From Escherichia phage vB_EcoP-101136BS1, in sequence record MZ234024.1: a stretch of DNA of 39,375 nt; one strand, 5' to 3'. The number at the start of each line of letters is the position of its first letter. Within the stretch, counting starts at the first letter, position 1. The position numbers were made by a program, and so were the translations under genes. Positions 1 to 39,375 of this stretch are shown in pieces. Below the pieces are notes generated by a model. That model was not told the DNA's origin, searched no databases, and worked only from the letters and a program-made list of their open reading frames with translations.

Positions 1-3000
1 ATGCAGGAACGAGAGGATCGCTCTACGTGGTTCGGTTTCGGCTCGGCTACAGAAGCTGAAGTGAAGAACTCTATGGTCGGCGTGGCTATCCGCGCTGGTC
101 AGACCGAGGACTCACTGGATGTCATTGGCGATGTGTTCAACCCAACCCGATGGAATAACCATAAGTGGTCTCGTGAGGAGCTGGACCAGATTCGTAACGC
201 TGGGGTTCTGCCTCAGTATTACGGAGTCATCACTGGTGGTTCCCCTCAGAACCTGACTGAGCTGATTAACTTGGCGCTTGAGAACCAGAAGTTGGACCAA
301 GAGAAGGCCAAGGCCGGGACTGGTGCTCAACTGGCGGCTGGTGTGATTGGTGCTGGCGTGGACCCTCTGACCTACGTTCCTATTGCTGGGCAGGTAGGTA
401 AAGGTGGGAAGCTAGTCAACAAGATGTTCACTGTGGCTGCTCAGTCTGGTGCTCTGGCTGGGGCATCCGAGATTGCTCGAACCTCAGTTGCTGGTGGGGA
501 CGCTCATGTGGCTGAGGCAATTATGGGCGGTGCTCTCTTCGGTGGGGGAATGACAGCTATCGGGGACGCTATCGGCAAGGCCTTAGGCAAGTCAACCAAC
601 GAGTTCGCCGGACCAGCCACACGTCTGGAAGCCCGTGAGACTGCACGTAATGTTGATGGTCAGGACCTGTCGCGTATGCCAATCCGTGAAGGAGAGGAGA
701 CCTTTAGTCATCAAGGTGTTAAGTTCGCAGACGTTCCGAACGAGCCGGGTAGTGTACGACTGGAAGATGGTTCAATCCTGATTGGTGAGAATCCTCTGAA
801 CCCTAAGACACGTAAAGTCTTTGACGAAGTGATTGAGCCTGAACGTGCCGCTGCTGGTGTGAACCTTGGTGGGCTGACTGAGATTGGCCTGAAGCTGCTT
901 CGGTCCGAGAACCCTGAGATTCGTGGAGTAGCTGCTGACTTAGTACGTTCACCGACTGGTATGCAGTCTGGGGCCTCAGGTAAAATAGGGACAACTGCGT
1001 CAGACGTATTCGAGAGACTTCGTGCTGTGGACCATCGGTTCTACAATGACATCGACGATGCGGTTACTGAGGCACTAAAGGACCCGTACTTCCAGACAGC
1101 ATTCTGGCGAGACTCTGGCGCATTCCGTCAAGACATCTATCAGCGCGTGTCTATGGCTATCGAAGATGGTAGCGGAAACCTGAAGGCTGAATTGACTCCG
1201 GGAGAACTGAAAGTCTATGACCTGCTGAAGAACCAGTTTGACGCCAAGCGTGAGATGATGGAGAACCCGGCGATGTTTGGTCGCCCAGACGCTCAGTCTA
1301 TCTTTCCGGGTAGCCGCTTCAAGGGAACATACGTCCCGCATGTGTATAGCAACCAGATGAAGGAGCTGTACATCAAGGAGCTTGGGAGTCCAGAGGCACT
1401 ACAGGAGGCCATCAAGAAGTCATGGTTGACCAGCTATGCGTCTCGACCTGAAGTCAAGAAACGTGTGGACGAGGCACTCTTAGAGGCTGACCCTACGTTG
1501 ACTCCAGAAGGACTTGCGGCTGCGGTCGATAAGTACGCCAACGATAAGGCTTATGGTATCTCTCACACCGAGCAGTTCGAGCGTTCATCCGTAATGGAAG
1601 AGAACATCAATGGTCTGGTGGGTCTGGAGAACAACAGCTTCCTTGAGGCTCGTAACCTGTTCGATAGCGATATGTCAATCGTCCTACCTAACGGTCAGAC
1701 CTTCAGTGTCAACAACCTGCGTGAGTGGGACATGGACAAGATTGTCCCGGCCTACAACCGTCGAGTTAATGGCGATATTGCTATCATGGCTGGTACAGGC
1801 AAGACCACGAAGGACATGAAGGACTTGGTTGAGACCCTGATGAACAAGGCTGGGGATGACGGTAAGTTGAAAGGTGAAGTATCTACATTACGTGACACTT
1901 TGAAGATTCTAACTGGTCGTGCTCGACGTGATGGTGCTGATGATGCGGCCTTCGCTACCGTGATGCGCACAATGACAGACCTATCGTTCTTCGCTAAGAA
2001 TGCCTACATGGGTGTTCAGAACTTAACGGAGATTGGTGGTATGCTGGCTCGTGGTAACGTTCGTGCAATGCTTCATGGAGTCCCAATTTTCCGTGACCTA
2101 GCCTTCCGTAACAAGAAGGTTGGGGCCTCAGAGATTAAGGACCTGCACAATGTTATCTTCGGTAAGGAACTGGATGACTCAATCCGTCCGTCTAAACAGG
2201 ATGTCATTGACCGTCTGCGATCTTACAGTGACCTCGGTCGTGGTACAGCTACAGCTCTGGGGACTGCCAAGTATTACACTGGCGAACTTGCAGTACGCTC
2301 TCCGTTCACTAAAGTCCTCAACGGTACGACCAACTACCTGTTAGATGCTGGACGTCAGGGCTTCCTGTCTGACATCGTGGAGCATAGCCTGACTGGTAGT
2401 AAGCGTAAGTTCGATGACCGCTGGCTGAAGACCGCTGGTATCTCTGACGAGCAGTGGAAGGGCATTAAGTCCCTAATCCGTGAGTCAGTGACTCGTGGTC
2501 CAGACGGGAAGTACACCATCAAGGATAAGAAGGCGTTCAGTCAGGACCCAAGGGCTATGGACCTCTGGCGTATGGGTGACACCATCGCTGATGAGACCCT
2601 GCTACGTCCCCACAAGCTGAGCAACATGGACGCCAAGGCTTATGGTCCGATAGCGAAGACTGTCTTGCAGTTTAAGAACTTCGTTATCAAGTCTATCAAC
2701 GGTCGAACCATGCGTACCTTCTACAATGCCACCAAGAACAACCGAGCTATGGACGCTGCGCTGTCAACGGTTATGTCTATGGGTCTGGCTGGAATGTACT
2801 ACATGGCTCAGGCGCACATAAAGGCTTACGCTATGCAGGACGGTCGTGACCGAGAGTATCTGAAGCAAGCCCTTAACCCAACAATGATTGGCTATGCGGC
2901 GCTGTCCCGTAGCTCCCACTTAGGTGGTCCTCTTGGGGTCGCCAACATTCTGGGTGGAATCGCTGGGTATGAGGACACTAAGATGCTCCGCTCGTCAATC

Positions 3001-3303
3001 CTTCCGCGCTCACCTACCGAGAAGACGGAGAAGCCAATCGCCTTTGGTGCTGCTTCCAGTGGTCCGGTAATGAATGTGGTCGGCAACTTCCTTGAGCAGG
3101 TCCCGGCTTTCGGCTATGCTGCTAACGTTGGTGCTACGGCTTACAACTTGGCGGGATACCTCAAGGCGGATACCCGTGTCAACGAGCGAGACTACATGAC
3201 CGGGATGTATAACACGTTCCGTGAACTTGTACCGAATGACCCGATTACCCAGAAGTTGCTGCTTGGAACGTTTGAGGAGCAGGGCATCCACATCAAGGAC
3301 TAA
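1..3303 (+). CDS. gp16: internal virion protein D (gp16), C-terminal 1100 codons; the 5' part of the same gene is at 38791..39375
   Basis: ORF is open from base 1 with no start. Translation shares long conserved blocks with T7 gp16 as recalled (LEARETARN, RSPTGMQSGASGK, RRVNGDIAIM, FFAKNAYMG, NGTTNYLLDA, DPRAMDLWR, ELVPNDP). Frame is continuous with the ORF running off the window end. Confidence 0.9.
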   Translation: MQEREDRSTWFGFGSATEAEVKNSMVGVAIRAGQTEDSLDVIGDVFNPTRWNNHKWSREELDQIRNAGVLPQYYGVITGGSPQNLTELINLALENQKLDQEKAKAGTGAQLAAGVIGAGVDPLTYVPIAGQVGKGGKLVNKMFTVAAQSGALAGASEIARTSVAGGDAHVAEAIMGGALFGGGMTAIGDAIGKALGKSTNEFAGPATRLEARETARNVDGQDLSRMPIREGEETFSHQGVKFADVPNEPGSVRLEDGSILIGENPLNPKTRKVFDEVIEPERAAAGVNLGGLTEIGLKLLRSENPEIRGVAADLVRSPTGMQSGASGKIGTTASDVFERLRAVDHRFYNDIDDAVTEALKDPYFQTAFWRDSGAFRQDIYQRVSMAIEDGSGNLKAELTPGELKVYDLLKNQFDAKREMMENPAMFGRPDAQSIFPGSRFKGTYVPHVYSNQMKELYIKELGSPEALQEAIKKSWLTSYASRPEVKKRVDEALLEADPTLTPEGLAAAVDKYANDKAYGISHTEQFERSSVMEENINGLVGLENNSFLEARNLFDSDMSIVLPNGQTFSVNNLREWDMDKIVPAYNRRVNGDIAIMAGTGKTTKDMKDLVETLMNKAGDDGKLKGEVSTLRDTLKILTGRARRDGADDAAFATVMRTMTDLSFFAKNAYMGVQNLTEIGGMLARGNVRAMLHGVPIFRDLAFRNKKVGASEIKDLHNVIFGKELDDSIRPSKQDVIDRLRSYSDLGRGTATALGTAKYYTGELAVRSPFTKVLNGTTNYLLDAGRQGFLSDIVEHSLTGSKRKFDDRWLKTAGISDEQWKGIKSLIRESVTRGPDGKYTIKDKKAFSQDPRAMDLWRMGDTIADETLLRPHKLSNMDAKAYGPIAKTVLQFKNFVIKSINGRTMRTFYNATKNNRAMDAALSTVMSMGLAGMYYMAQAHIKAYAMQDGRDREYLKQALNPTMIGYAALSRSSHLGGPLGVANILGGIAGYEDTKMLRSSILPRSPTEKTEKPIAFGAASSGPVMNVVGNFLEQVPAFGYAANVGATAYNLAGYLKADTRVNERDYMTGMYNTFRELVPNDPITQKLLLGTFEEQGIHIKD

Positions 3304-10265: not shown

Positions 10266-10772
10266 ATGGAACGTAATGCTAACGCATACTATGAGCTGCT
10301 GGCTGCAACCGTTGAGGCATTTATCGAGCGTATTCAGTACGACCACCTGACTCAAGATGACGACTACAGCGATGCGCTGCATGAGGTCGTAGACGGTCAG
10401 GTTCCTCACTATTACCACGAGATTTTTACGGTGATGGCTGCTGATGGTATAGACAACGAGTTCGAAGACTCTGGGATGATACCTGAAACCAAGGACGTAA
10501 CGCGTATCCTACAAGCTCGCATCTATGAGGCACTTTATAACGACGTGTCTAATAGCTTGGATGTAGTCTGGTTTGAGGATGAAGAGGCAGACGAAGAGGA
10601 TGAATATTGGGTAGTTGACGCTAAAACAGGCGCAATAATTGTGCAAGCTGTAGCTCTTGAGGTCGCTACTGCATGTGCCAAGGTTAACTATGCGGCAGGT
10701 CGCCACCTGAAGGTGGAAGACACCAATGATAACGTAGTGTTCGACCCTGCGGCTGAGGACTGCGAGCGATGA
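10266..10772 (+). CDS. ocr: Ocr-like anti-restriction DNA-mimic protein (gene 0.3) with a ~50-aa C-terminal extension
   Basis: [45 protein letters not shown] is near-identical to T7 Ocr as recalled. T7 Ocr is 117 aa; this ORF is 168 aa, continuing past the acidic tail. Confidence 0.85.
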
Positions 10773-18102: not shown

Positions 18103-18795
18103 ATGGCTAAAGAGAAACTGAAGACTTTCACCACTCCGGTAGCTGGTATCGTTGAGCCTTACGCATGGCTGAACAAAGCAGACACCAAGTTTAACGAGCG
18201 TGGTGAGCATAAGGTTAACCTGACATTCGACCTGAGCGACCCGAAGGTCCGTAAGATGATTGATGTCTTACAGAAGATTCACGACGATGCGTATGCGAAA
18301 GCACTCGCAGACCACGAGAAGAACCCACCTCAGGTTCAGCGTGGCAAGAAGCCTATTGAACCACGTGAAGGCGACATGCCGTGGATTGAGAATGGTGACG
18401 GTACTGTTACCCTTAAGTTTAAATGCTTTGCGTCTTACCTGAAAGACGGCAAGTCCGAGCCTATCGTATTACGGTTCTACGACACCGATGCTAAACTCAT
18501 CCGTGACGTCCCGAATATCTGCGCTGGGTCTAAGATGAAGGTCAAGTTTAAAGTCCTGCCGTTCAAGTGGAACGCTGCGACTGGTGCAAGCGTTAAGCTC
18601 CAGCTTGAGTCCTGCCTTCTGGTAGAACTGAAGGAGTGGAAAGGCGATGGTGGTGATGGTGGCTGGGGTGATGATGAAGACCTTGGTACTGGCTACAAAG
18701 CGCCAACCGATGGTGACTTCGGTGACGATGACTTCGGTGACGATGGTTCCGAAGGTGGTGACGACTCCAACTCTGGTGGCGATTACGACTTCTAA
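18103..18795 (+). CDS. gp2.5: single-stranded DNA-binding protein (gp2.5) with an extended Gly/Asp-rich acidic C-terminal tail ending in DF
   Basis: 230 aa; acidic tail ...GDDDFGDDGSEGGDDSNSGGDYDF with a terminal Phe as in T7 gp2.5; position between gp2 and endonuclease I. Confidence 0.85.
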   Translation: MAKEKLKTFTTPVAGIVEPYAWLNKADTKFNERGEHKVNLTFDLSDPKVRKMIDVLQKIHDDAYAKALADHEKNPPQVQRGKKPIEPREGDMPWIENGDGTVTLKFKCFASYLKDGKSEPIVLRFYDTDAKLIRDVPNICAGSKMKVKFKVLPFKWNAATGASVKLQLESCLLVELKEWKGDGGDGGWGDDEDLGTGYKAPTDGDFGDDDFGDDGSEGGDDSNSGGDYDF

Positions 18796-19247
18796 TGGCC
18801 CAATGGTCTGCAAAACGGGGGCACTCTGTGGGTGCCTACCGCTCTGGACTTGAAGCCAAGAACCAGCAGTGGCTGGAACAGAACGGCGTCAAAGCGGAGT
18901 ACGAAAGCCATTATATCAACTATGTGATTCCGGCTTCCGACCACAAGTACACACCAGACTTTATCCTTCCAAACGGTATCATCGTGGAGACCAAAGGTAT
19001 CTTCGATAGTGATGACCGTAAGAAGCACCTTCTGGTACGAGAACAGCACCCAGAGTTAGACATCCGGTTCGTGTTCTCAAGTTCACGCTCCAAGTTATAC
19101 AAAGGGTCTCCAACCACGTATGGCGCATGGTGCGAAAAGAACGGCTATAAGTATGCCGATAAATTCATCCCGGTTGAGTGGCTTCGAGAGGCGACTGTAC
19201 GTCTGCCTTCAGGTATACTCATCCCCAAGAAGAAAGGAGTTAAGTGA
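18795..19247 (+). CDS. gp3: endonuclease I (Holliday junction resolvase, gp3)
   Basis: 150 aa (T7 is 149); YTPDFILPNGIIVETKG...EWL conserved. Confidence 0.9.
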   Translation: MAQWSAKRGHSVGAYRSGLEAKNQQWLEQNGVKAEYESHYINYVIPASDHKYTPDFILPNGIIVETKGIFDSDDRKKHLLVREQHPELDIRFVFSSSRSKLYKGSPTTYGAWCEKNGYKYADKFIPVEWLREATVRLPSGILIPKKKGVK

Positions 19248-22435: not shown

Positions 22436-24607
22436 ATGTTTGACCTTAAGAGTATCTGGGGTTCTGACATCGAGACCAACGGTCTCCTTGATACAGTCTC
22501 CCAGTTTCACTGTGGGGTCCTGATTAACGCCGAGTCGAATGAGACCCTTAAGTATGGGGTAGCTCCGATGGTCGGTATCGTCGGCGGCTTCAAAGAGTAT
22601 GTTCATAAAGTGGAAGAGATTGCCGCATCACCTGATGGTATGCTGGTATTCCATAACGGTATCAACTATGACGTCCCGGCTATAGACAAGCTGAAGCGTT
22701 TGTACTTTGGGAAACGCTTTAACTTCCCGAAACATAAGATGATTGATACCTTGGTGCTGGGACGCTTGATGTATCCAAACATTAAGTTCTCAGACATGGG
22801 CGCGGTAAAAGCTGGTCGTCTGCCACCTAAGATGATGGGACGCCAGTCTCTTGAGGCTTGGGGCTATCGTCTCGGTGAGATGAAAGGTGAGTACAAACAC
22901 GATTACGTTGCCAAGTGCAAGGCTGAAGGTATCGAATATAAGGCTGGGGACGAATGGTTGTTCCCGTCTCAGGAGATGCTGGACTATAACGTTCAAGACG
23001 TTGTGGTCACACTGGCGTTGTTCAAGAAGTTCCTGACTGACAAGTATTACTTCCAGTCTGAACAGTTCGCTTTCGACCAGATTTATGCGTTGCGTCTGGA
23101 ACATGATGCTGCGTGGACCTGTGCGAAGATGGAGTGTAACGGCTATCCGATGAACACCGAGATGGTCGAAGGCTTATATCGTGAACTCACTGTCAAACGT
23201 GCAGAGTTGCTGGACAAGCTGCGTTCGACTTTCGGTAGCTGGTACGCACCAAAGGGAGGCAAGGAGTTCTTCAGGCATCCACGGACAGGTAAGGACCTTC
23301 CGAAGTATCCGAGGGTCGTGTATCCTAAGGTCGGTGGCATCTTTAAGAAGCCGAAGAACAAAGCTCAACGCTTAGGTCTTGAACCTTGTGAACGCGATAC
23401 GCGAGACACGATGGAAGGAGCACCATTCACGCCAATCACTTACGTTGAGTTTAATCCGGGAAGCGGAGACCACTTAGCGAAAGTCCTGATGGAGCGTGGC
23501 TGGGAGCCTGTTGACTTCACTGACACCGGGAAACCTGTAGTCGATGACGAGACGTTGGAACACGTTAAGTTACCAGACGCAGAGGCTCAGGCTTGCGTAG
23601 AGCTGGTCCGTGAGTATCTGGTAGTCCAGAAGCGCATCGGTCAGGCTGCTGAAGGTAAGAACGCATGGTTGAAACTTGTAGGTCCAGACGGACGTATGCA
23701 CGGCTCAATAAACCCATGCGGGGCAGTAACCGGACGTGCGACCCATAGTTCACCAAACATGGCTCAGGTCCCGGCTAACGGTGCTCCATATGGTGAGACT
23801 TGCCGTGGTGCTTTCGGTGCAGCGTGGAACAAGAAGGACGGTAAGCCAGACCCTTGGATTCAAGTTGGTGTGGATGCCTCAGGTCTTGAGCTTCGTTGTC
23901 TTGGGAACAGAGCGGCTACGTTTGATGGTGGTGCATATGCGAAGACTGTGGTAGAAGGTGACATCCACTGGGCCAACGCAGTAAACGCTGGGTTAGCACC
24001 TAACGTCCAACGCGATAAGTCTAACCACGACCATGAGGCTTTCCGTAACAACGCTAAGACGTTCATCTACGCGTTCCTGTATGGTGCAGGGGCCGCTAAG
24101 ATTGGACTGATAGTAGGCGGTGGTAAGAAGGAAGGTTCAGCGCTAATGAAGAAATTCATTGAGGGTACACCAGCTATCAAGGACCTCAGGGAAGCTGTAA
24201 GTAATACGTTAATCTCAGACTCTAAGTGGGTGGACGGAGAGAACATCGTTAAATGGAAACGTCGCTGGCTGAAAGGTCTGGATGGTCGTCGTATTCACAT
24301 CCGGTCTCCACACTCAGCACTTAACGCCCTACTTCAGGGGGACGGTGCGGTTGTCTGTAAGCACTGGATGGTACTGACTGAGAAGAAACTTGAAGAGGCT
24401 GGTTACGGTAACGGATGGGACGGCGACTTTGCGCTAATGGCTTGGATTCACGATGAATTGCAGATAGCGTGCCGTACTCAGGAGATAGCAGAAGATGTCG
24501 TCCGTATTGCTCAAGAGGCGATGCGCGAGGTCGGACGCTTCTATAACTTCAAGTGTGAACTTGATACGGAGGGTAAGATTGGACCAACGTGGAAAGAGTG
24601 TCATTGA
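22436..24607 (+). CDS. gp5: DNA polymerase (gp5), family A with 3'-5' exonuclease
   Basis: 723 aa; exonuclease motif DIETNGL, polymerase motifs NFKCELDTEGKIGPTWKECH, KTFIYAFLYGAG, HDELQ. Confidence 0.95.
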   Translation: MFDLKSIWGSDIETNGLLDTVSQFHCGVLINAESNETLKYGVAPMVGIVGGFKEYVHKVEEIAASPDGMLVFHNGINYDVPAIDKLKRLYFGKRFNFPKHKMIDTLVLGRLMYPNIKFSDMGAVKAGRLPPKMMGRQSLEAWGYRLGEMKGEYKHDYVAKCKAEGIEYKAGDEWLFPSQEMLDYNVQDVVVTLALFKKFLTDKYYFQSEQFAFDQIYALRLEHDAAWTCAKMECNGYPMNTEMVEGLYRELTVKRAELLDKLRSTFGSWYAPKGGKEFFRHPRTGKDLPKYPRVVYPKVGGIFKKPKNKAQRLGLEPCERDTRDTMEGAPFTPITYVEFNPGSGDHLAKVLMERGWEPVDFTDTGKPVVDDETLEHVKLPDAEAQACVELVREYLVVQKRIGQAAEGKNAWLKLVGPDGRMHGSINPCGAVTGRATHSSPNMAQVPANGAPYGETCRGAFGAAWNKKDGKPDPWIQVGVDASGLELRCLGNRAATFDGGAYAKTVVEGDIHWANAVNAGLAPNVQRDKSNHDHEAFRNNAKTFIYAFLYGAGAAKIGLIVGGGKKEGSALMKKFIEGTPAIKDLREAVSNTLISDSKWVDGENIVKWKRRWLKGLDGRRIHIRSPHSALNALLQGDGAVVCKHWMVLTEKKLEEAGYGNGWDGDFALMAWIHDELQIACRTQEIAEDVVRIAQEAMREVGRFYNFKCELDTEGKIGPTWKECH

Positions 24608-24638
24608 CCCTCGAACCCAGACCCTACGCTTCCACACC

Positions 24639-24920
24639 ATGCCTACCGGATGTATCGTCTGCGTGTCCCACAAGAGGAACCAAGATGGGTACTTCCGGTA
24701 CTCCATGGGAAGCTACAGGAAGGGCAACAAGTTCGCCTTCATGTTCCACCGATGGGTGTGGGAGCAGAAGCGCGTACCTATACCAAATGGCTACGAAATA
24801 GACCATTTGTGCTTGAACCGTGGGTGCTGCAACATAGAGCATCTACAGTGTATTCCAAAACGCGAACACGTCATTAAGACGAACCGTGAGCGCAAACTTG
24901 TTAAGAAGGAGTGTCACTAA
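24639..24920 (+). CDS. HNH endonuclease-like protein (gene 5.3 position)
   Basis: 93 aa from the ATG at 24639 (ORF-track frame begins inside gp5); motif YEIDHLCLNRGCCNIEHLQ. Confidence 0.65.
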   Translation: MPTGCIVCVSHKRNQDGYFRYSMGSYRKGNKFAFMFHRWVWEQKRVPIPNGYEIDHLCLNRGCCNIEHLQCIPKREHVIKTNRERKLVKKECH

Positions 24921-25204
24921 TGGCTATTACTAAACGTATTCGTGTGAGTTTTGATCTGAAGATGGTTGTTAACTCAAAGGAAGAAGATACCATGTGTCGC
25001 CAACTGGCCGAGATGACTAAAGCCTACGCTGAGGGTGAGGAGCTGGATGGTCTTCAGTTGGCTATGGTCAAAACCGCAATCGAGTCAGGCCCTGAGTCTG
25101 CCCTTGAAATTGCCCTCAAGAAGACCATCAAGGATGAGCTGGTAGACGACTTTGGTTATGGCCAGTTCGGAGTATCTAACCTGCGATTCGAGGTCAAGCA
25201 ATGA
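24920..25204 (+). CDS. gp5.5: gp5.5-like protein
   Basis: MAITKRIRVSFDL resembles the T7 gp5.5 N-terminus MAMTKKFKVSFDV; ~94 aa. Confidence 0.6.
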   Translation: MAITKRIRVSFDLKMVVNSKEEDTMCRQLAEMTKAYAEGEELDGLQLAMVKTAIESGPESALEIALKKTIKDELVDDFGYGQFGVSNLRFEVKQ

Positions 25205-25410
25205 GTGAATACTTACGGGTCCTAGCGGCCCTTAAGTCCTGCCCGAAGACCTTCCAGTCCAACTATGTGCGCAACAACGCTGCACTTGTGGCTGAGGCTG
25301 CGAGTCGTGGACATCTAAGCTGCCTGTCTATGGATGGGCGTAACAACGGTGCGTGGGAGATTACCGCTGCTGGCACCAAGTTCCTGAACCAACACGGAGG
25401 ATGCCTGTGA
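25201..25410 (+). CDS. gp5.7: gp5.7-like protein
   Basis: 69 aa, the same length as T7 gp5.7; KSCPKTFQSNYVRNNA.LVAEAASRGH.SCL...GAWEITA.GT.FL near-identical. Confidence 0.85.
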   Translation: MSEYLRVLAALKSCPKTFQSNYVRNNAALVAEAASRGHLSCLSMDGRNNGAWEITAAGTKFLNQHGGCL

Positions 25411-32621: not shown

Positions 32622-34979
32622 ATGCCATTAATTACGCAAAGCATAAAAAATCTTAAAGGTGGTATTAGCCAGCAGCCAGACATACTGAGGTTCTCAGACC
32701 AAGGCGAGGCACAAGTTAACTGCTGGTCATCCGAAAGTGATGGACTCCAGAAGCGTCCACCTACAGTCTTCAAGCGACGTCTTAACATCGACGTTGGGAG
32801 CAACCCCAAGTTCCACCTGATTAACCGTGATGAGCAGGAGCAGTATTACATAGTGTTCAACGGGTCCAACATTCAGGTAGTTGACTTGAGCGGTAATCAA
32901 TACTCAGTTTCCGGTGAGGTAGACTACGTTAAATCGTCCAACCCGCGAGATGACATCCGTGTCGTTACCGTTGCAGACTATACGTTCATCGTGAACCGTA
33001 AGGTTGTCGTTAAAGGTGGAAGCGAGAAGTCACACTCTGGTTATAATCGTAAAGCACGCGCTTTAATTAACCTGCGCGGTGGACAGTATGGTCGCACCCT
33101 TAAGGTAGGAATCAACGGTGGAGTTAAGGTCTCGCATAAGCTGCCAGCAGGTAATGATGCCGAGAATGACCCACCTAAGGTGGACGCTCAAGCCATTGGT
33201 GCAGCTCTGAGAGACCTTCTTGTTGCTGCCTATCCTACCTTCACGTTCGACCTTGGGTCTGGCTTCCTGCTAATCACAGCTCCTTCAGGGACCGACATTA
33301 ACTCAGTGGAGACTGAGGATGGATACGCTAACCAGCTAATCAGCCCAGTCCTCGACACGGTGCAAACAATCTCTAAGTTGCCTCTTGCGGCTCCAAATGG
33401 GTACATCATTAAGATTCAAGGTGAGACCAACAGTAGCTCCGATGAATATTACGTGATGTATGACTCCAATACTAAGACGTGGAAGGAGACAGTAGAGCCG
33501 GGAGTGGTCACTGGGTTCGATAACACCACAATGCCACATGCTCTGGTGAGACAATCTGACGGCTCCTTTGAGTTCAAGACTCTGGACTGGTCTAAGCGGG
33601 GTGCTGGTAATGATGACACAAACCCTATGCCTAGCTTCGTGGATGCTACGATTAACGATGTGTTCTTCTACAGGAACAGGCTAGGGTTCTTGTCAGGAGA
33701 GAACGTAATCATGAGCCGTTCAGCCAGCTACTTTGCGTTCTTCCCTAAGAGTGTGGCGACATTGAGTGATGATGACCCTATTGACGTAGCTGTAAGTCAC
33801 CCTAGAATCTCAATACTTAAGTATGCCGTTCCGTTTAGCGAGCAGCTACTACTTTGGTCGGATGAGGTTCAGTTCGTGATGACAAGCTCTGGTGTCCTTA
33901 CCTCGAAGTCTATCCAGCTTGATGTAGGCTCAGAGTTTGCCTTAGGAGATAATGCCCGACCGTTCGCTGTAGGACGCTCAGTCTTCTTCTCAGCGCCTCG
34001 TGGGTCATTCACCAGCATTAAGCGATACTTCGCTGTAGCAGATGTGTCTGACGTGAAGGATGCCGATGATACCACAGGCCACGTACTGTCCTATATTCCT
34101 AACGGGGTGTTTGACATTCAAGGTACAGGGACTGAGAACTACATCTGCGTCAACTCTACAGGTGCATACAACCGAATCTACATCTACAAGTTCTTGTTTA
34201 AGGACGGCGTACAACTTCAAGCCTCTTGGTCGCACTGGGAGTTCCCTAAAGCTGATAAGATTCTGGCGTCTGCGTCGATTGGCTCTACCATGTTCATTGT
34301 TCGTCAGCACCAAGGGGGTGTGGACATTGAGCACCTTAAGTTCATCAAGGAGGCAACCGACTTTCCATTAGAGCCGTATAGACTCCACGTTGACTCCAAG
34401 GTGTCTATGGTAATCCCAATTGGCTCATATAACGCTGACACCTATGAGACTACGGTCGACATTGGTTCTGCTTATGGTGGAAACGCTCCGTCTCCCGGTC
34501 GGTACTATCTGATTGACAGTCAGGGTGCCTATGTGGACCTTGGTGAACTGACCAACATCTCAACTGTGGCTATACTCAATGGCGATTGGTCGGGACGTAC
34601 AGTGTTCATCGGACGGTCTTATCTGATGTCCTACAAGTTCTCACGGTTCCTGATTAAGATTGAAGACGATAGTGGCACTCAGTCTGAAGACACTGGACGT
34701 CTACAGCTTCGTAGGGCTTGGGTCAACTACAAGGACACTGGCGCTCTTAGACTCATTGTCAGAAACGGTGAGCGGGAGTTCGTGAACACCTTTAATGGGT
34801 ACACCCTTGGTCAGCAACCCATCGGGACTACCAACATTGGGGACGGTCAGTATCGCTTCGCTATGAATGGTAACGCATTAACCACGAGTCTAACCTTAGA
34901 GTCAGACTATCCTACCCCAGTGTCCATCGTTGGGTGTGGCTGGGAGGCGTCATACGCTAAGAAAGCTCGTTCCGTCTAA
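32622..34979 (+). CDS. gp12: tail tubular protein B (gp12)
   Basis: 785 aa (T7 gp12 is 794); position between gp11 and the phi13 promoter. Confidence 0.9.
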   Translation: MPLITQSIKNLKGGISQQPDILRFSDQGEAQVNCWSSESDGLQKRPPTVFKRRLNIDVGSNPKFHLINRDEQEQYYIVFNGSNIQVVDLSGNQYSVSGEVDYVKSSNPRDDIRVVTVADYTFIVNRKVVVKGGSEKSHSGYNRKARALINLRGGQYGRTLKVGINGGVKVSHKLPAGNDAENDPPKVDAQAIGAALRDLLVAAYPTFTFDLGSGFLLITAPSGTDINSVETEDGYANQLISPVLDTVQTISKLPLAAPNGYIIKIQGETNSSSDEYYVMYDSNTKTWKETVEPGVVTGFDNTTMPHALVRQSDGSFEFKTLDWSKRGAGNDDTNPMPSFVDATINDVFFYRNRLGFLSGENVIMSRSASYFAFFPKSVATLSDDDPIDVAVSHPRISILKYAVPFSEQLLLWSDEVQFVMTSSGVLTSKSIQLDVGSEFALGDNARPFAVGRSVFFSAPRGSFTSIKRYFAVADVSDVKDADDTTGHVLSYIPNGVFDIQGTGTENYICVNSTGAYNRIYIYKFLFKDGVQLQASWSHWEFPKADKILASASIGSTMFIVRQHQGGVDIEHLKFIKEATDFPLEPYRLHVDSKVSMVIPIGSYNADTYETTVDIGSAYGGNAPSPGRYYLIDSQGAYVDLGELTNISTVAILNGDWSGRTVFIGRSYLMSYKFSRFLIKIEDDSGTQSEDTGRLQLRRAWVNYKDTGALRLIVRNGEREFVNTFNGYTLGQQPIGTTNIGDGQYRFAMNGNALTTSLTLESDYPTPVSIVGCGWEASYAKKARSV

Positions 34980-35003
34980 CTTATTGAAGGGCCTATAGAT
35001 TTA

Positions 35004-35026
35004 CCTTAACTATCACTATAGGGACT
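35004..35026 (+). promoter_or_regulatory. phage RNAP promoter (phi13 position) bracketed by a 10-bp inverted repeat
   Basis: CTTAACTATCACTATAGGGACT; flanked by GGGCCTATAG (34989-34998) and CTATAGGCCC (35026-35035). Confidence 0.8.
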
Positions 35027-35055
35027 ATAGGCCCTTAAGGTTATAAGGAGACTTT

Positions 35056-35514
35056 ATGTATATTCGCAAGGCTACGGAACCAGATGTCCACTACTTTATG
35101 CGGCATCTTTCAGCAGATGATGTTAATGAGTGCAAAGCAAACTATGGGTCAACCGTGGGTCTCTCTGAAAGACTGCTCAAGCACCTATCTCCTTCATCTG
35201 TGGTTTTAACGAACTGTGTAGGCGAAGTGTTTGCCTATGGTGGAAACCAAGGGGATAACGTATGGTTCTTGACTTCCGGTCTGGTCTATAAGCTGAGACC
35301 TAAAGAGAAGCGAGAGTTCATAAAGTGTATCTCTGAGTACAGGGACTTAATGTTAGACCAATACGGGACCATCTGGAACTACGTGTGGTCAGACAATAAG
35401 TCTCACATTAAATTCTTGAAGTTGCTTGGGGCTAAGTTCCATGATGATTGGACTATCAGCCCGGTAACTGGTGAGCGTTTTCAATTATTCACTATCTCTA
35501 AGGAGGACGTATGA
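35056..35514 (+). CDS. hypothetical protein, 152 aa; possible gp13 internal virion protein A by position only
   Basis: First ORF after the phi13-position promoter and before gp14; no sequence match could be confirmed from memory. Confidence 0.5.
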   Translation: MYIRKATEPDVHYFMRHLSADDVNECKANYGSTVGLSERLLKHLSPSSVVLTNCVGEVFAYGGNQGDNVWFLTSGLVYKLRPKEKREFIKCISEYRDLMLDQYGTIWNYVWSDNKSHIKFLKLLGAKFHDDWTISPVTGERFQLFTISKEDV

Positions 35515-35912
35515 CGAAGGTCTGTTTAACTTGTGGTCTGGAGAAACCAATCACTGAGTTTCACAAACAGGCCACCAAGAAAGACCCGAACAGGCGTAAG
35601 CCTCATTGTAGAAGCTGCTGGTCCAAGATACGTAAGGATAGAACCCCAGAGCACAACAGGCGATATAACCTGAAGAGATGCTATGGAATAACACCTGAGG
35701 AGTATGATAAAATGCTTCGTGAGCAAGGTGGGACATGTGCTATTTGTCATGGTACAGAGTCTGTAGGAAGACTAGCGGTAGACCATTGCCATTCAACTGG
35801 AAAGGTTAGAGGGCTGCTATGTACCAACTGCAATCAAGCTATAGGCAAGCTGAAGGATGACGCTCAGTTGCTTAGAAACGCTATCAACTATCTGGAGGTG
35901 AACCGTGTGTGA
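35511..35912 (+). CDS. endonuclease VII-like (T4 gp49 family) zinc-binding nuclease
   Basis: GGTCAICHG...LAVDHCHSTGKVRGLLCTNCNQAIGKL matches the endonuclease VII signature, plus an upstream Cys pair (CLTCG). ATG overlaps the upstream stop (ATGA). Confidence 0.75.
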   Translation: MTKVCLTCGLEKPITEFHKQATKKDPNRRKPHCRSCWSKIRKDRTPEHNRRYNLKRCYGITPEEYDKMLREQGGTCAICHGTESVGRLAVDHCHSTGKVRGLLCTNCNQAIGKLKDDAQLLRNAINYLEVNRV

Positions 35913-36492
35913 ACCAGTATCCATCGGTCTAGGAGTAATGGCTGTAGCAGGGGCCACTATGTCCGCATCCCAACAGGCCAAGGCTGAAGGAGCAGCAATT
36001 GACGCTCAGAACCGACAGGCTCAGGAAATGGTTAAGCAGATGAACTACTCTGACGCCAACCTGAAGATGCAGGAGCGAGACCTGAAGGAGCAGCAGATGG
36101 CTGAACTGACAGAGACCACTCTAAACGGTATCCGCAATCAGGGGATGGTCCGAGCTGCAGTGGCTGAGTCAGGTCTGGAAGGTAACTCTATGGACAGGAT
36201 TGAACGTCAGGTCGAAGGAGATACAGTCAAGGAGCGAGCAGGGATTACCGAAAGTTACAACCGCGACTATGCGGCTATCTTCGGGAACCGTATCGCCAAC
36301 ATTGAGAACACAAAGTCTGCTATCCGTGGTCAAGGTAAAATCATCAAGACCAGCCCACTGGCTCATGCACTTAATGTTGCTAACGCCGGGATGCAAGGTT
36401 ACGCTGCTGGTGAATCAATGTCTGGGTCATCCAGCTCTGGCGGTTCTGCACCAATTAGGGCTGCTAAAGGAACACCTACAGGTCATAGCTAA
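35905..36492 (+). CDS. gp14: internal virion protein B (gp14)
   Basis: 195 aa (T7 gp14 is 196); GTG start giving MCEPV (T7 MCWAA); MLEGSSMDRI-like GLEGNSMDRIER, YNRDY.AIF, PI.AAKGT.TG conserved. Confidence 0.85.
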   Translation: MCEPVSIGLGVMAVAGATMSASQQAKAEGAAIDAQNRQAQEMVKQMNYSDANLKMQERDLKEQQMAELTETTLNGIRNQGMVRAAVAESGLEGNSMDRIERQVEGDTVKERAGITESYNRDYAAIFGNRIANIENTKSAIRGQGKIIKTSPLAHALNVANAGMQGYAAGESMSGSSSSGGSAPIRAAKGTPTGHS

Positions 36493-36503
36493 GAGGAGGA
36501 CTA

Positions 36504-38786
36504 ATGGCTAGTAATATTGAATCAGCTCTGGCTAATCGGACTATGGGTCGTGGCAGAGCGCCTGGTAAAACTATCGCCGTCAACTATCAAGCAGCCAGCG
36601 TTCAGGCTCCAACTGGCGACTCCGGTCTGGCTCGTGCGTTAACCAACTTCGTTGAGTCTGGGACAGGATTGTACAAGCAGTTCAAGGACGATGAGAAGAC
36701 CAGAGCTGACGAGCGGTCTAACGAGATTATCCGTAAGCTGACACCACAGCAAAGACGTGAGGCTATCCAGAACGGCACATTGCTGTATCAGGATGACCCT
36801 TACGCTATGGAAGCACTTCGAGTCAAGACTGGTCGTAATGCTGCCTTTGCTGTAGACGACGAGATTAACGTTAAGATTCAGAACGGTGAGTTCCGTACAC
36901 GTCAGGACATGGAAGAGTATCGCCACCAGCGACTTCAGGACGCCGCTAAGTCCTATGCTGAAGAGGCGGGTATCAACCCTACCGACGAGTTCTTCCAGCG
37001 TGGATTCAACGATAACATCACAGACCGCAACATCGCCATCTATGGGTCTTTCAATAAGTATTTCAGCAAGCAGTCTGAAGAGACAGCAATGTTGAACACT
37101 CGTATTGAGATGAACTCATTCCTGAACGATGGGGACCTGATGCGTTCTCCTGAGTCTGGAAAGACCTTCATGGCCTACCTTCGGGATGGACTAACGACTG
37201 CTGCTATCCCTTCGGACCAGCGAGCACGAGAGGTCATTACCCAGACGGTCCGTGACGCAATCCAGAAGTCAGGTGGCTCAAACTTCCTACAGCAAGTACG
37301 AGGCGAGCGAATCACCCTTAACGGTGTGGATGCTACAGTCGAAGAGATTGTAGGACCAGATGTCTTCAACGCTGCTATTGTAGAGGCCCAAGGTACTGAG
37401 TACAAGCTGGTGGCTAAGTATCAGGAAGACTTGTCGTTAGGCGTTCAGTCTGCGATTCTTCAGGATGACCCAACCATCGGTCTGGCCCAGATTCAGAAAC
37501 TCAAGGAGCAGAACAACCTGCTTCAACCGGGTGAAGAACTCACGCCTCAGCGTCAGATGCTTATTAATGCCGAAGCCAGCTTACTGGAAGCGGTCAAGCG
37601 TAAGTCTGCTGAACAAGCGAAGGAGAACACTAAGTTAATCCAGACCCAGAACAAGCAACTGGTCATCGACCAAGTGTATCAGCGACGTCTGGCCGGTGAC
37701 AACGTATCCACCAACTATGAGGACCTTCCGGTCTCTGACGCTACAGGGGAGTTCAAGCGTTCAGACATGAACAACTATGCGTCTTCCAAGCTACAGCAGA
37801 TTGACCAGATGGACATCCCTGAGGCTGCTAAGGACGCTCAGAAGGTGGCATTGTTAAGAGCTGACACTAATAACGGTCCGTTCCGTAATGCCTTCCAGAC
37901 GCTGACTCAGGACGCTGCTGGTGAGTGGCAAGCTGCGGTCATCCGTGGGCAGTACGACCCAGACAAGATGCAACGCTTCGAGTCTCTTCGTCGTGCCTAC
38001 ACTCAGGACCCTTCAAGTTTTGCTGCTCTATATCCTGACCAAGCTCAGTTGTTCTCTACGTTCGACCAGATGGACAAGATGGGTCTGGACCCTCAGACGA
38101 TGATTGAGGCTGATAAGCAAGCTGCAAGTCAAAGCCGTGAGATGCGCATGGAGTCAGACAAGGCGTGGCAGGAGTTGAAGAACGACTCTCGGAATAAGGA
38201 CCTTTCGCGTCTTCCTACGTCTCTAGACTCAAGTGCTCGTAAGGTCTGGGACTCATGGTACTATCGTACAGGTAACGCTGATGCTGCAACTCAGCAGACT
38301 CAACGCTGGCTGAATGAGAACACCGTAACGTTCCAGTCTGAAGGTTCTGATGGTAAGTCCCTCGGCATGGTGTCCAAGCACCAGCTTATGGTCGGGGATA
38401 ACCCAGAGTCGTGGCAGGTGGGTCGAGACATTATCGACACAGCTCGTCAGCAGCTCATTAAGGCCAACCCTTGGGTAGTGAACTCTCAGTTGTCCGTTGT
38501 TGAACAGAACGGCTCTATCTTCCTCCAAGACGCTACGGGGACTATTCGTATTCGATACGATAAAGAACTTGTAGGTAAACTCTACCGCGAACAACAGCAG
38601 AAGGCACAAGATGCCGCATATGCTCAGGCAGAACGTGACGCTAACAAGCGAGCGCGTATCGTCGGGACTAAAGCTGCTGGTGACAAACGTCGAGCTGACC
38701 GAGAGGCCAACATCGAGAAGCGTGGTGGGATGTACAATGACGTCTCACTGGAGGGTATCGCAAACGTACTAATCGGTAAGGAGTAA
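36504..38786 (+). CDS. gp15: internal virion protein C (gp15)
   Basis: 760 aa (T7 gp15 is 747); position between gp14 and gp16; strong RBS GAGGAGG. Confidence 0.85.
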   Translation: MASNIESALANRTMGRGRAPGKTIAVNYQAASVQAPTGDSGLARALTNFVESGTGLYKQFKDDEKTRADERSNEIIRKLTPQQRREAIQNGTLLYQDDPYAMEALRVKTGRNAAFAVDDEINVKIQNGEFRTRQDMEEYRHQRLQDAAKSYAEEAGINPTDEFFQRGFNDNITDRNIAIYGSFNKYFSKQSEETAMLNTRIEMNSFLNDGDLMRSPESGKTFMAYLRDGLTTAAIPSDQRAREVITQTVRDAIQKSGGSNFLQQVRGERITLNGVDATVEEIVGPDVFNAAIVEAQGTEYKLVAKYQEDLSLGVQSAILQDDPTIGLAQIQKLKEQNNLLQPGEELTPQRQMLINAEASLLEAVKRKSAEQAKENTKLIQTQNKQLVIDQVYQRRLAGDNVSTNYEDLPVSDATGEFKRSDMNNYASSKLQQIDQMDIPEAAKDAQKVALLRADTNNGPFRNAFQTLTQDAAGEWQAAVIRGQYDPDKMQRFESLRRAYTQDPSSFAALYPDQAQLFSTFDQMDKMGLDPQTMIEADKQAASQSREMRMESDKAWQELKNDSRNKDLSRLPTSLDSSARKVWDSWYYRTGNADAATQQTQRWLNENTVTFQSEGSDGKSLGMVSKHQLMVGDNPESWQVGRDIIDTARQQLIKANPWVVNSQLSVVEQNGSIFLQDATGTIRIRYDKELVGKLYREQQQKAQDAAYAQAERDANKRARIVGTKAAGDKRRADREANIEKRGGMYNDVSLEGIANVLIGKE

Positions 38787-38790
38787 CATA

Positions 38791-39375
38791 ATGGCGACTC
38801 GTGGTATTCGCAATAACAATCCGGGTAACATCCGGGTAAGTAAGGACCAATGGGAAGGAATGACTGGAGATGATGGCGCATTCGTCACCTTCGATAGTCC
38901 AGAGTCTGGCGTCCGAGCTTTAGGTAAAAACCTGCTGTCCTACGGTCGCCAAGGTTATGATTCCATCGAGAAGATTATCAACAGATGGGCACCTCCTAAC
39001 GAGAACGACACTAAGGCTTATATTGACTCAGTGGTGGCTGCAACTGGTATTCCAGCTACACAGAGTCTCGACCTATCGGACCCTGACACCCTGTCTTCTC
39101 TGGCTCAAGCTATCAGCTTCCATGAGACAGGCTCCCGGTACGACCCTGAAGTCTATCAGAAGGGAGTCGCACGAGCACTCAATGGCATTAGCCCAAAGAC
39201 TCCACCAGTAAGCGCTAACGTATTTGACGCACTCACGGAAGGACTCAAGGCTAAACCTAAAGTAGCTCTTGGCGAGAACCTTCCGACCGCTGCTGGTCTA
39301 AACATTGAGGGTCAAGCACCTGAAGCTCCCAACGAATCGTTCGGTGAGATGTTCTATAAGTCTACTGGCGAGACC
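38791..39375 (+). CDS. gp16: internal virion protein D (gp16), N-terminal 195 codons, running off the window end and continuing in frame at 1..3303
   Basis: ATG at 38791 after RBS AAGGAG; no stop before the window end; 585 nt is exactly 195 codons, so base 1 starts a new codon. N-terminus (RNNNPGNIR...) does not resemble the T7 gp16 SLT domain. Confidence 0.8.
   Translation, partial: MATRGIRNNNPGNIRVSKDQWEGMTGDDGAFVTFDSPESGVRALGKNLLSYGRQGYDSIEKIINRWAPPNENDTKAYIDSVVAATGIPATQSLDLSDPDTLSSLAQAISFHETGSRYDPEVYQKGVARALNGISPKTPPVSANVFDALTEGLKAKPKVALGENLPTAAGLNIEGQAPEAPNESFGEMFYKSTGET

Follow-up and report, generated by a model that had tools for sequence, protein, structure and literature searches.

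Gene organisation and expression signals of the locus

The window, i.e. the whole 39,375-nt stretch of DNA of Escherichia phage vB_EcoP-101136BS1 that was analysed here (MZ234024.1), contains a small open reading frame, referred to below as gene 13.5, between the genes of the internal virion proteins gp13 and gp14. An earlier note, made from the sequence alone, had read an ORF with the motif CAICHG at 35511-35912 between these two neighbours, and the ORF call and Pfam matches confirm its coordinates, motif and surroundings. The source genome belongs to the Kayfunavirus group (K1F-like relatives of T7), the genomes of which are highly mosaic. The features of the region, together with the endonuclease I gene located outside the element, are as follows:

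18795..19247, plus strand: gene 3, T7-type endonuclease I (PF05367, E 2.8e-81, profile positions 1-147 of 149); outside the element
35004..35027, plus strand: late promoter phi13 of the phage RNA polymerase (…CTTAACTATCACTATAGGGACTA…), read from the sequence, coordinates within 1-2 nt
35056..35514, plus strand: gene 13, internal virion/scaffold protein gp13, 152 aa (PF11090, E 5.9e-42)
35500..35506, plus strand: Shine-Dalgarno sequence AAGGAGG, serving the nuclease gene here and gp14 in empty-site phages
35511..35912, plus strand: gene 13.5, ATG to TGA, 133 codons, 133 aa
35514..35907, plus strand: insertion of 394 nt relative to empty-site relatives (alignment and junction listings)
35523..35618, plus strand: N-terminal zinc module (C5, C8 … C33, C36), presumed DNA-binding or structural repeat
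35670..35897, plus strand: ββα-Me nuclease domain, residues 54-129 (Pfam match)
35894..35898, plus strand: replacement Shine-Dalgarno sequence GGAGG for gp14, inside the 3' end of the nuclease gene
35905..36492, plus strand: gene 14, internal virion protein gp14, 195 aa (PF24072, E 2.9e-46)
35916..35991, plus strand: candidate right-hand co-conversion tract, nine substitutions relative to pO2 within 87 nt right of the insert

Gene 13, the nuclease gene and genes 14-15 are all read as a single late mRNA from the phi13 promoter, the position of which matches the annotated 'promoter phi13' of EcoDS1 (L001 1005-1027). A scan of 34900-36600 gave no sigma-70-like promoter, and a search for a promoter or terminator belonging to gene 13.5 itself revealed none.

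The 394-nt cassette sits exactly at the gene 14 start codon. The sequence of the empty site at the insertion point is …GGAGGACGTATG|TGTGAACC…, the empty junction of the pO2/22664BS1 type reads …CTAAGGAGGACGTATGTGTGAACCCGTAAGTATCGG…, and the insertion junction is ambiguous by 2 nt (TG). The Shine-Dalgarno region (…AAGGAGGACGTATG) is the same in the window and in the empty sites of pO2, 22664BS1 and 20 or more IMG/VR loci, and the cassette borrows the ribosome-binding site and the ATG that belong to gp14 in the empty-site phages. The gp13 stop codon TGA (35512-35514) overlaps the nuclease start as ATGA, and gp13 is four codons shorter here than in the empty-site relatives; in pO2 and 22664BS1 its gene comprises 471 nt and ends inside the gp14 gene. 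At the opposite end, gp14 begins with a GTG codon located 8 nt before the nuclease stop (overlap GTGTGTGA). The GGAGG sequence ahead of it is kept in all seven type-A cassettes, and the start codon itself varies, being ATG in the empty sites, EcoDS1 and TH20, and GTG in the window, yong1, PDP21P1, PDP351P4 and VIPECLMC06. Since the last codons of the cassette supply both GGAGG and GTG, gp14 is still made. The cassette thereby shows how a gene may be slotted into a tightly packed late operon without harm, one ribosome-binding site being borrowed and a new one donated.

Family and domain architecture of the gene 13.5 product

The product of 35511..35912 matched the Pfam family PF02945 (Endonuclease_7; E 8.6e-28, 96.5 bits against a gathering cut-off of 23.6 bits, residues 54-129, profile positions 4-81 of 82) and PHROG 2633 'endonuclease VII' (E 8.5e-45), and its family match is therefore far beyond chance. 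In the 133-aa translation, CAICHG forms residues 76-81 and LAVDHCHSTGKVRGLLCTNCNQ residues 88-109. The nuclease motif of the T4 endonuclease VII (Endo VII) type, which had been noticed earlier from the letters alone, was recovered by Pfam, by a PDB sequence match to 1e7d (T4 Endo VII-type core) and by a Foldseek match of the AF2 model, which had a mean pLDDT of 93.4.

Both the sequence and the model place an N-terminal Cys4 zinc module first and the ββα-Me domain at the C-terminus. The family to which such proteins belong is recognised by the residues D, H, H, R and N (D40, H41, H43, R54 and N62 of T4 Endo VII) and by CX2-4C / CX2C zinc ligands (PMC6083498). The gene 13.5 protein carries the DHHRN residues as D91, H92, H94, R100 and N108, and the ligands of the nuclease domain as C76, C79, C104 and C107 (second Cys4 site). 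Across 72 homologues, the five DHHRN residues, C76, C79 and C107 do not vary and C104 is conserved in at least 90%, while all nine are invariant in alignment A4, which includes the homing endonuclease F-CphI. Among the N-terminal cysteines, C5, C8, C33 and C36 are invariant in A4, and C8, C33 and C36 are at least 90% conserved in alignment A3. None of the catalytic and zinc-binding residues has been lost, and a dN/dS of 0.08-0.16 against six orthologues points to purifying selection, even at dS of about 1. Gene 13.5 is a real, intact, small nuclease gene of a known "selfish" type, its nuclease function being predicted from sequence, and it is an ordinary gene already known from close relatives.

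F-CphI (ORF177 or 'g49' of cyanophage S-PM2), the founding member of the DHHRN homing-endonuclease family (Fang et al. 2018, PMC6083498), aligned with the gene 13.5 protein end to end (44% identity, residues 1-129, E 2e-32, BLASTP). In the same study, EcoDS1 gp13.5, which is 97% identical to the window protein, was among the Endo VII-motif proteins used to define the family and is listed in Table S1 with motif position 'C', i.e. C-terminal; a C-terminal motif is the hallmark of the 'endonuclease clade' and not of the 'resolvase clade' (PMC6083498). Both elements of this architecture, the C-terminal motif and the whole-length alignment with F-CphI, are present in the gene 13.5 protein. Its probable placement in the 'endonuclease clade' rests on this architecture, on the full-length similarity to F-CphI and on the table of Fang et al. 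(2018).

T4 Endo VII (gp49; PDB 1en7, 2qnc) has in common with the gene 13.5 protein the catalytic ββα-Me core, the zinc cysteines and the equivalents of D40, H41, H43, R54 and N62. The presence of this core, the annotation of relatives as 'endonuclease VII' or 'recombination endonuclease VII' and expression late in infection, at the time of concatemer resolution, might indicate a second resolvase of Holliday junctions and branched DNA, equivalent to the T4 enzyme and aiding endonuclease I in recombination and packaging. Such a role is, however, highly improbable. The alignment with T4 Endo VII is limited to residues 9-71 of 157 (about 87 columns in Foldseek). In the T4 enzyme the core is N-terminal and is followed by a helical dimerisation domain forming the junction-binding dimer, whereas the gene 13.5 protein carries its core at the C-terminus, as in the 'endonuclease clade' (PMC6083498), has no Endo VII dimerisation domain and possesses an extra zinc module ahead of the core. 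Moreover, the genome retains an intact gene 3; the T7-type endonuclease I reported earlier at 18795..19247 was verified by its PF05367 match, and this enzyme is the phage's own Holliday-junction resolvase. Podovirus proteins with an Endo VII motif that occur alongside endonuclease I have been argued not to be resolvases (PMC6083498). Finally, any gene at the gp13|gp14 junction is absent from roughly 85% or more of close relatives. As endonuclease I is present and the gene is missing from most relatives, the gene 13.5 product does not qualify as the resolvase of this genome.

Distribution among relatives and signs of transfer

Gene 13.5 was found in 7 of 260 related phage records (6 phages), and it is missing from the closest genome, 22664BS1 (97.5% identity over 25 kb). 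The earlier suggestion of an acquired gene is borne out by these data, which show an accessory insertion, and the universal syntenic presence in relatives that would have spoken against it was not observed. The gp13|gp14 junction is uninterrupted in 20 of 24 IMG/VR relatives, and an exact 26-nt pattern from the gene had no match in IMG/VR, which thus yielded no further type-A carriers. The sporadic presence between the conserved genes 13 and 14 is one of the traits by which a free-standing homing-endonuclease gene is defined operationally.

The same site is occupied in other relatives by a CY1-type lineage (about 40% identity, 11 records) and by a Ro45lw-type lineage (also about 40% identity). 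The cassettes of these two lineages have another right junction, in which the gp14 ATG is replaced by ATT. One locus (L017) contains a 5'-truncated, decayed remnant at the same site. Other genera have homologues with about 50% identity at this junction, one of them being gene 13.5 of phiYeO3-12, on which a search for statements in the literature returned nothing usable; further homologues occur elsewhere in unrelated phages.

All carriers share one insertion point, and their left junctions vary. That of the window is unique among the carriers in retaining the empty-site sequence GGAGGACGTATG, and the window differs from the other carriers by two synonymous differences in codons 2 and 4. The left junction is GGAGTAAAGATG in the E. 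coli-type carriers EcoDS1, yong1, TH20 and PDP21P1, where gp13 is two codons shorter, and GGAGTAGCAATG in VIPECLMC06. The right junction of gp14 (GGAGG and the start codon) is common to the window, EcoDS1 and yong1.

A position-by-position comparison of 35394-36470 with the empty-site phage pO2 revealed the insert and nine substitutions as the sole differences. The nearest four substitutions (35916 and 35920-35922; CCC GTA AGT to CCA GTA TCC) are synonymous and match yong1, EcoDS1, TH20 and PDP21P1. The clustering of substitutions to the right of the insert is consistent with a co-conversion tract, which fits break repair without proving it. The CCAGTATCC flank is present in 6 of 7 carriers versus 2 of 24 empty sites (L004 and L012), in samples that are not phylogenetically independent; the carrier with an AGT-type flank is VIPECLMC06. 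The change of AGT to TCC in gp14 codon 6 was considered as a strict immunity marker and rejected, VIPECLMC06 lacking the change and L004 and L012 having it without the gene. Because of these exceptions it is treated here only as part of the putative co-conversion tract.

The arrival of the cassette and its flank could also be due to ordinary homologous recombination, no break by an endonuclease being needed. Recombination is very active in phages of the T7 group, and the region is a patchwork, resembling 22664BS1 up to about 35000 and pO2 between 35394 and 36470 (mismatch bins). It is conceivable, then, that gene 13.5 is a passenger, brought in by ordinary homologous or illegitimate recombination within a mosaic genome, and that its product had no part in the spread and may even be inactive. 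This explanation has very little probability: no catalytic or zinc residue is lost and purifying selection acts on them, the insertion point does not vary among carriers, the junction has been used independently by two further lineages of this nuclease family, and the substitutions are tightly clustered beside the insert, as expected for local break repair.

As proof of recent transfer, a cassette more identical than both of its flanks was looked for; such an excess exists on one side alone, that of gp13, in the EcoDS1 group. In TH20 and PDP351P4, the cassette is 94-98% identical and the adjoining gp13 alleles are 64-68% identical; in PDP21P1 and VIPECLMC06, the divergence of the cassette roughly equals that of its flanks. 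Divergence that tracks the flanks, taken with the strong purifying selection, would also be in keeping with a gene inherited vertically over a long time for some benefit to the phage.

Gene 13.5 might be a domesticated or beneficial nuclease kept for the fitness of its carrier, which serves in interference competition by cutting co-infecting relatives (marker exclusion) or degrades host or foreign DNA. Besides the low dN/dS and the tracking of flanks by the cassette in some lineages, the persistence of three lineages at the same site would agree with this, and the authors who described Hafnia phage Ca speculated that such nucleases attack host DNA (PMC8861465). On the other hand, the rarity of the gene among relatives and the decayed copy fit a selfish cycle of gain, decay and loss, and the characterised family members are sequence-specific. 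In addition, the mechanism would overlap with that of homing, cut and repair being the same, which makes such a role an added benefit and not a true alternative. Overall, a primarily beneficial role appears rather unlikely.

Proposed homing and relation to known systems

Most probably, gene 13.5 belongs with F-CphI in the Endo VII-motif (DHHRN) family and is a free-standing homing-endonuclease gene. The earlier note had spoken of a second junction-cleaving or nicking enzyme, possibly a free-standing homing endonuclease. Its interpretation is supported, with the refinement that the F-CphI/Hpy99I architecture and the 44% identity with F-CphI make a second junction-cleaving enzyme unlikely. The putative function as an endonuclease and in homing relies on this level of homology and on the comparative patterns. 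The cassette, which has no promoter of its own, is transcribed as part of the phi13 late mRNA and uses the original ribosome-binding site of gp14. The mechanism that follows is inferred from the homology with F-CphI and from the comparative patterns. On co-infection with a relative lacking the gene, the enzyme might recognise a specific sequence, located either at the gp13|gp14 junction or just to its right, and nick first one strand and then the other, producing a double-strand break. In the repair of the break by the phage recombination machinery, the carrier genome would serve as the template, and the recipient would gain the cassette along with a short piece of right-hand flank. Protection of the carrier genomes from cutting is proposed to have two sources: their target site is split by the insertion, and synonymous changes are present in the gp14 codons next to it.

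A further, speculative reading, possible but on the whole unlikely, is that the gp13|gp14 junction is a contested hot-spot. At least three divergent DHHRN lineages would act there as mutually exclusive 'alleles' that cut empty or rival junctions in co-infections, the gene serving as a weapon of interference competition and being more than a parasite. The window would then represent a very recent invasion, and the right tract of 12-87 nt might show where, within the opening codons of gene 14, the enzyme recognises and cleaves its target.

The widespread label 'recombination endonuclease VII' at this locus almost certainly denotes a mobile, site-specific nuclease, as its predicted activity goes, and not a resolvase, which calls for a correction of annotations. 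E. coli phages offer carriers, empty sites, a decayed copy and two rival lineages, and with them a system in which homing by a DHHRN enzyme could be tested for the first time in the T7 group. The practical value is small, but in the engineering of Kayfunavirus for therapy and in cocktails the spread of such genes between co-infecting phages should be expected.

The closest known counterparts are gene 13.5 of EcoDS1 (YP_002003777 / ACF15821) and ORF40 of Hafnia phage vB_HpaA_yong1 ('phage Ca'), which are 97-98% identical over 133 aa, occupy the same site between genes 13 and 14 and are both annotated as 'endonuclease VII'. The genomic background differs, that of the window being LM33P1/22664BS1-like, unlike EcoDS1 and yong1. 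Gene 13.5 of phiYeO3-12 and the CY1-type and Ro45lw-type genes have the same insertion point, architecture and conserved residues, with 40-50% identity.

Among solved structures, the best match was Hpy99I (PDB 3fc3; sequence E 6.4e-8, residues 76-196; Foldseek E 7.7e-7). Both proteins possess Cys4 zinc repeats and a ββα-Me site; Hpy99I has two zinc sites made of CXXC pairs (PMC2699513), and the N-terminal module of the gene 13.5 protein corresponds to the first CXXC…CXXC repeat of Hpy99I, C5, C8, C33 and C36 aligning with cysteines in Hpy99I residues 76-110. Hpy99I, however, has an extra N-terminal β-barrel, acts as a dimer recognising the 5-bp CGWCG and is paired with a methyltransferase, whereas gene 13.5 encodes no barrel and has no methyltransferase neighbour. 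An Hpy99I-like type II restriction enzyme was rejected as an identity for the product, its neighbours being gp13 and gp14 and the alignment starting at Hpy99I residue 76, after the barrel.

Like F-CphI, the gene 13.5 protein has a CxxC…CxxC module at the N-terminus and an Endo VII motif at the C-terminus, and the D, H, H, R and N residues and the zinc cysteines are the same in both. Both are free-standing genes, each directly after a conserved gene; F-CphI is encoded directly downstream of the intron-containing psbA of S-PM2. F-CphI is site-specific and Mg-dependent, and it nicks its target first and then cuts it (PMC6083498). It targets the psbA gene of cyanomyoviruses and works with a group I intron, whereas gene 13.5 resides in a T7-like podovirus, at the gp13|gp14 junction, with no intron. 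The activity of F-CphI is proven, and that of the gene 13.5 protein is predicted from homology.

Gene 13.5 and its genomic setting

According to megablast, the window belongs to the genus Kayfunavirus, K1F-like T7 relatives, and across 25 kb Escherichia phage vB_EcoP-22664BS1 comes nearest to it (97.5% identity). It looks like a complete, circularly permuted genome with the break inside gene 16: base 1 starts an ORF (1-3303) encoding the C-terminal 1100 aa of gene 16, gp15 ends at 38786 and the other edge is 38789-39375. This permutation suggests an assembly-derived circular contig, not a natural genome end. The genes discussed below are:

18795-19247, T7-type endonuclease I (PF05367, E 2.8e-81)
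32622-34979, nozzle protein gp12 (Pfam)
35056-35514, gp13 (Pfam)
35511-35912, + strand, gene 13.5, nuclease
35905-36492, gp14 (Pfam)
36504-38786, gp15 (no Pfam match; name taken from the syntenic, annotated gene 15 of EcoDS1)

The earlier note had placed an apparently acquired endonuclease VII-type gene between gp13 and gp14 in a phage that already encodes endonuclease I, and the genes were found as described. The ORF runs on the + strand from ATG (35511) to TGA (35910-35912), comprises 133 codons and contains both quoted motifs, CAICHG (residues 76-81) and LAVDHCHSTGKVRGLLCTNCNQ (residues 88-109). Its product matched Pfam Endonuclease_7 (PF02945) with E 8.6e-28 (96.5 bits, cut-off 23.6) and PHROG 2633 'endonuclease VII' (E 8.5e-45). 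The orthologue of EcoDS1 (protein 97% identical) is labelled 'gene 13.5, endonuclease VII', and that of Hafnia phage vB_HpaA_yong1 (98% identical), which is 'phage Ca' in PMC8861465 with the gene as ORF40, is labelled 'endonuclease VII'. The first interpretation is supported, and the element is an ordinary and already known one, since GenBank has annotated genes nearly identical to it and an orthologue is included in the paper defining the DHHRN homing-endonuclease family. New here are the description of the cassette at nucleotide level, the co-conversion tract, and three lineages plus a remnant at one junction.

Elsewhere in the window, a second nuclease ORF (24495-24920, + strand, 141 aa, HNH_3 domain PF13392, E 4e-16) overlaps the DNA polymerase gene (22436-24607) at the latter's 3' end; it looks like another sporadic gene of homing-endonuclease type, because coverage of 24200-25400 reaches 80% in only 23 of the 224 related phage records. 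A 168-aa protein (10266-10772, + strand) has at its N-terminus a DNA-mimic domain of the Ocr type (PF08684, E 7e-29, residues 8-94) and, exceeding the profile of ~101 positions, bears an unassigned C-terminal extension.

Insertion anatomy and flanking sequences

Empty sites read …CTAAGGAGGACGTATG|TGTGAACC…, where the ATG is the gp14 start, and gp13 there extends to a TAA within gp14. In the window, a 394-nt insert (35514-35907, junction ambiguous by 2 nt) is placed after this ATG, and the Shine-Dalgarno sequence (35500-35506) and ATG (35511), which are those of gp14 at empty sites, serve the nuclease gene. The stop codon of gp13 (TGA, 35512-35514) comes four codons early and overlaps the nuclease ATG, while the 3' end of the cassette supplies new gp14 signals, GGAGG (35894-35898) and a GTG start (35905) that overlaps the nuclease stop codon (GTGTGTGA). 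Scanning of 34900-36600 revealed no sigma-70-like promoter and no convincing terminator; the phage promoter phi13 lies upstream of gene 13 (~35004-35027). Because its signals are borrowed or overlapping, it has no promoter of its own and phi13 is located upstream, gene 13.5 is a passenger of the late transcript for the virion proteins, with coupled translation.

Over 35394-36470 the window is the same as pO2, a relative with an empty junction, except for the insert and nine substitutions confined to 35916-35991; the ~480 nt to the right contain zero differences. The four substitutions closest to the insert change CCC GTA AGT to CCA GTA TCC and are synonymous (Pro-Val-Ser); this flank is common to the other carriers of the window-type cassette (type A), VIPECLMC06 excepted. 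The pattern looks like a short right-hand co-conversion tract left by local break repair. No tract was found left of the insert, where the window retains the empty-site GGAGGACGT. The left junction is GGAGTAAAG in EcoDS1, yong1, TH20 and PDP21P1 and GGAGTAGCA in VIPECLMC06, so the recombination end-points vary between carriers. In TH20 and PDP351P4, as well as EcoDS1, the cassette is 94-98% identical to that of the window and the adjoining gp13 only 64-68%, which means that one cassette resides beside two very different gp13 alleles. The GC content of the cassette (46.3%, genome 50.2%) is a weak signal of acquisition, since gp13 itself has 44%.

The region 34200-36500 is a local mosaic: ~34200-35000 is nearly identical to 22664BS1, 35394-36470 is identical to pO2 apart from the insert and tract, and divergence is greater elsewhere. 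Given this mosaicism, recombination without an endonuclease cut could also lie behind this particular event. The carrier-type flank is missing in VIPECLMC06 and was found in L004 and L012, two genomes with an empty site, which rules it out as a strict immunity marker; these two genomes could carry resistant alleles, be ancestral, or have lost the cassette precisely. Empty junctions (e.g. 1505-1535 of the related locus L002) contain CGTA twice, 12 nt apart (GA-CGTA-TGTGTGAACC-CGTA-AGT), and most type-A carriers have changes in both; the pair is a candidate lead to the recognition sequence.

Occupancy of the gp13-gp14 junction

Gene 13.5 is present in only 7 of the 260 phage records matching window 34500-37000, representing six phages: yong1, PDP21P1, TH20, EcoDS1 (two records), PDP351P4 and VIPECLMC06. 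The gene is sporadic at this junction: most other relatives, with flanks 95-96.6% identical, match in two pieces and lack the gene, as does 22664BS1, the closest genome overall. Among 24 IMG/VR relatives gene 13.5 itself was found in none; the junction is uninterrupted in 20 and is occupied by a different endonuclease VII-type gene in one and by a fragment in another. The junctions of two distant relatives, L018 and L027, are uninterrupted too, with a different sequence. Metagenomic relatives with 83% protein identity occupy the same site.

Other occupants were also identified. Escherichia phage CY1 encodes here a 128-aa protein (type B) of the same architecture, 40% identical to the gene 13.5 protein, with close relatives in 11 records; its gene (L033 3012-3398; OM937123.1 35842-36228) is intact, lies between 'protein inside capsid A' and 'B' and is unannotated in GenBank. 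Ro45lw (IMG/VR locus L023) has a third type (type C, 42% identical). L017 1398-2030 (IMG/VR UViG 2974604219) contains a 5'-truncated CY1-type remnant (VCAICRTSGPSRGLCVDHCHDSGKVRG…) after a truncated gp13 (…GTIWN*), a decaying copy in a genome that apparently tolerates a shortened gp13. Homologues of ~50% identity occur at gp13-gp14 in other genera (phiYeO3-12 gene 13.5, AP5, FE44, several Klebsiella phages), and further ones at other positions in other phages. The junction is a hot-spot. A homing-endonuclease gene is expected to invade a site, persist there, decay and finally be lost.

Type B and C cassettes end …GGAGGATTAGAAAATTTGCGA…, converting the gp14 ATG to ATT (L033 3395-3440, L023, L017 ~1990-2030); gp14 must then start at this rare ATT or at a Met eight codons downstream, which would cost the conserved N-terminal Met-Cys-Glu-Pro.

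Pairwise dN/dS of gene 13.5 against six orthologues was 0.08-0.16 (dS up to ~1) and no catalytic or zinc-binding residue is lost, which indicates purifying selection on the protein. A passive or inactive passenger is very improbable in view of this selection and because nucleases of one family have repeatedly occupied this site.

Relation to F-CphI and other endonuclease VII-motif proteins

In a tblastn search the gene 13.5 protein matched 'g49' of cyanophage S-PM2, located directly 3' of the intron-containing psbA; this is F-CphI, a proven free-standing homing endonuclease (44% identity over residues 1-129, E 2e-32). F-CphI is Mg-dependent and site-specific, cleaves the two strands one after the other, nicking first, and its residues equivalent to those of endonuclease VII are essential (Fang et al. 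2018, PMC6083498). During co-infection, the gene 13.5 enzyme, probably a homing endonuclease as well, would likewise nick and then break either the empty junction or gene 14 within its first codons, and the T7-type recombination system would repair the break from the carrier genome, copying the cassette and a short flank. A beneficial role as a competition weapon is compatible with the data and mechanistically the same cut-and-repair process, but is considered rather unlikely.

Proteins with an endonuclease VII motif fall into a 'resolvase clade', in which the motif is N-terminal, and an 'endonuclease clade', in which it is C-terminal; podoviruses of the latter all carry endonuclease I, thus their proteins 'might not be resolvases' (PMC6083498). 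Table S1 of that work lists 'ACF15821 gp13.5 Escherichia phage EcoDS1 … C', so the family placement is already in the literature. That gene 13.5 encodes a true second resolvase is highly doubtful, as the motif is C-terminal, a dimerisation domain is lacking, endonuclease I is already encoded and most relatives miss the gene.

Among 72 aligned homologues C76, C79, D91, H92, H94, R100, C107 and N108 are invariant and C8, C33, C36 and C104 are conserved in at least 90%; in a seven-sequence alignment including F-CphI and phiYeO3-12 gp13.5, the cysteines C5, C8, C33, C36 and C76, C79, C104, C107 and the DHHRN residues D91, H92, H94, R100 and N108 are all invariant. The top sequence match among solved structures was the restriction enzyme Hpy99I (3fc3, E 6.4e-8), residues 3-129 aligning with Hpy99I 76-196, the N-terminal CxxC…CxxC included, whereas T4 endonuclease VII aligned only at its residues 9-71 of 157. 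Foldseek with an AlphaFold2 model (mean pLDDT 93.4) gave the same order: Hpy99I (E 7.7e-7, 139 columns), then T4 endonuclease VII (~87 columns, rmsd 3.0-3.6 Å). Hpy99I consists of two β4α2 repeats, each with one Cys4 zinc, and a ββα-Me active site in the second (PMC2699513). The gene 13.5 protein thus has the two-zinc-repeat layout common to Hpy99I and F-CphI, and not that of the T4 resolvase, in which a catalytic domain is joined to a dimerisation domain.
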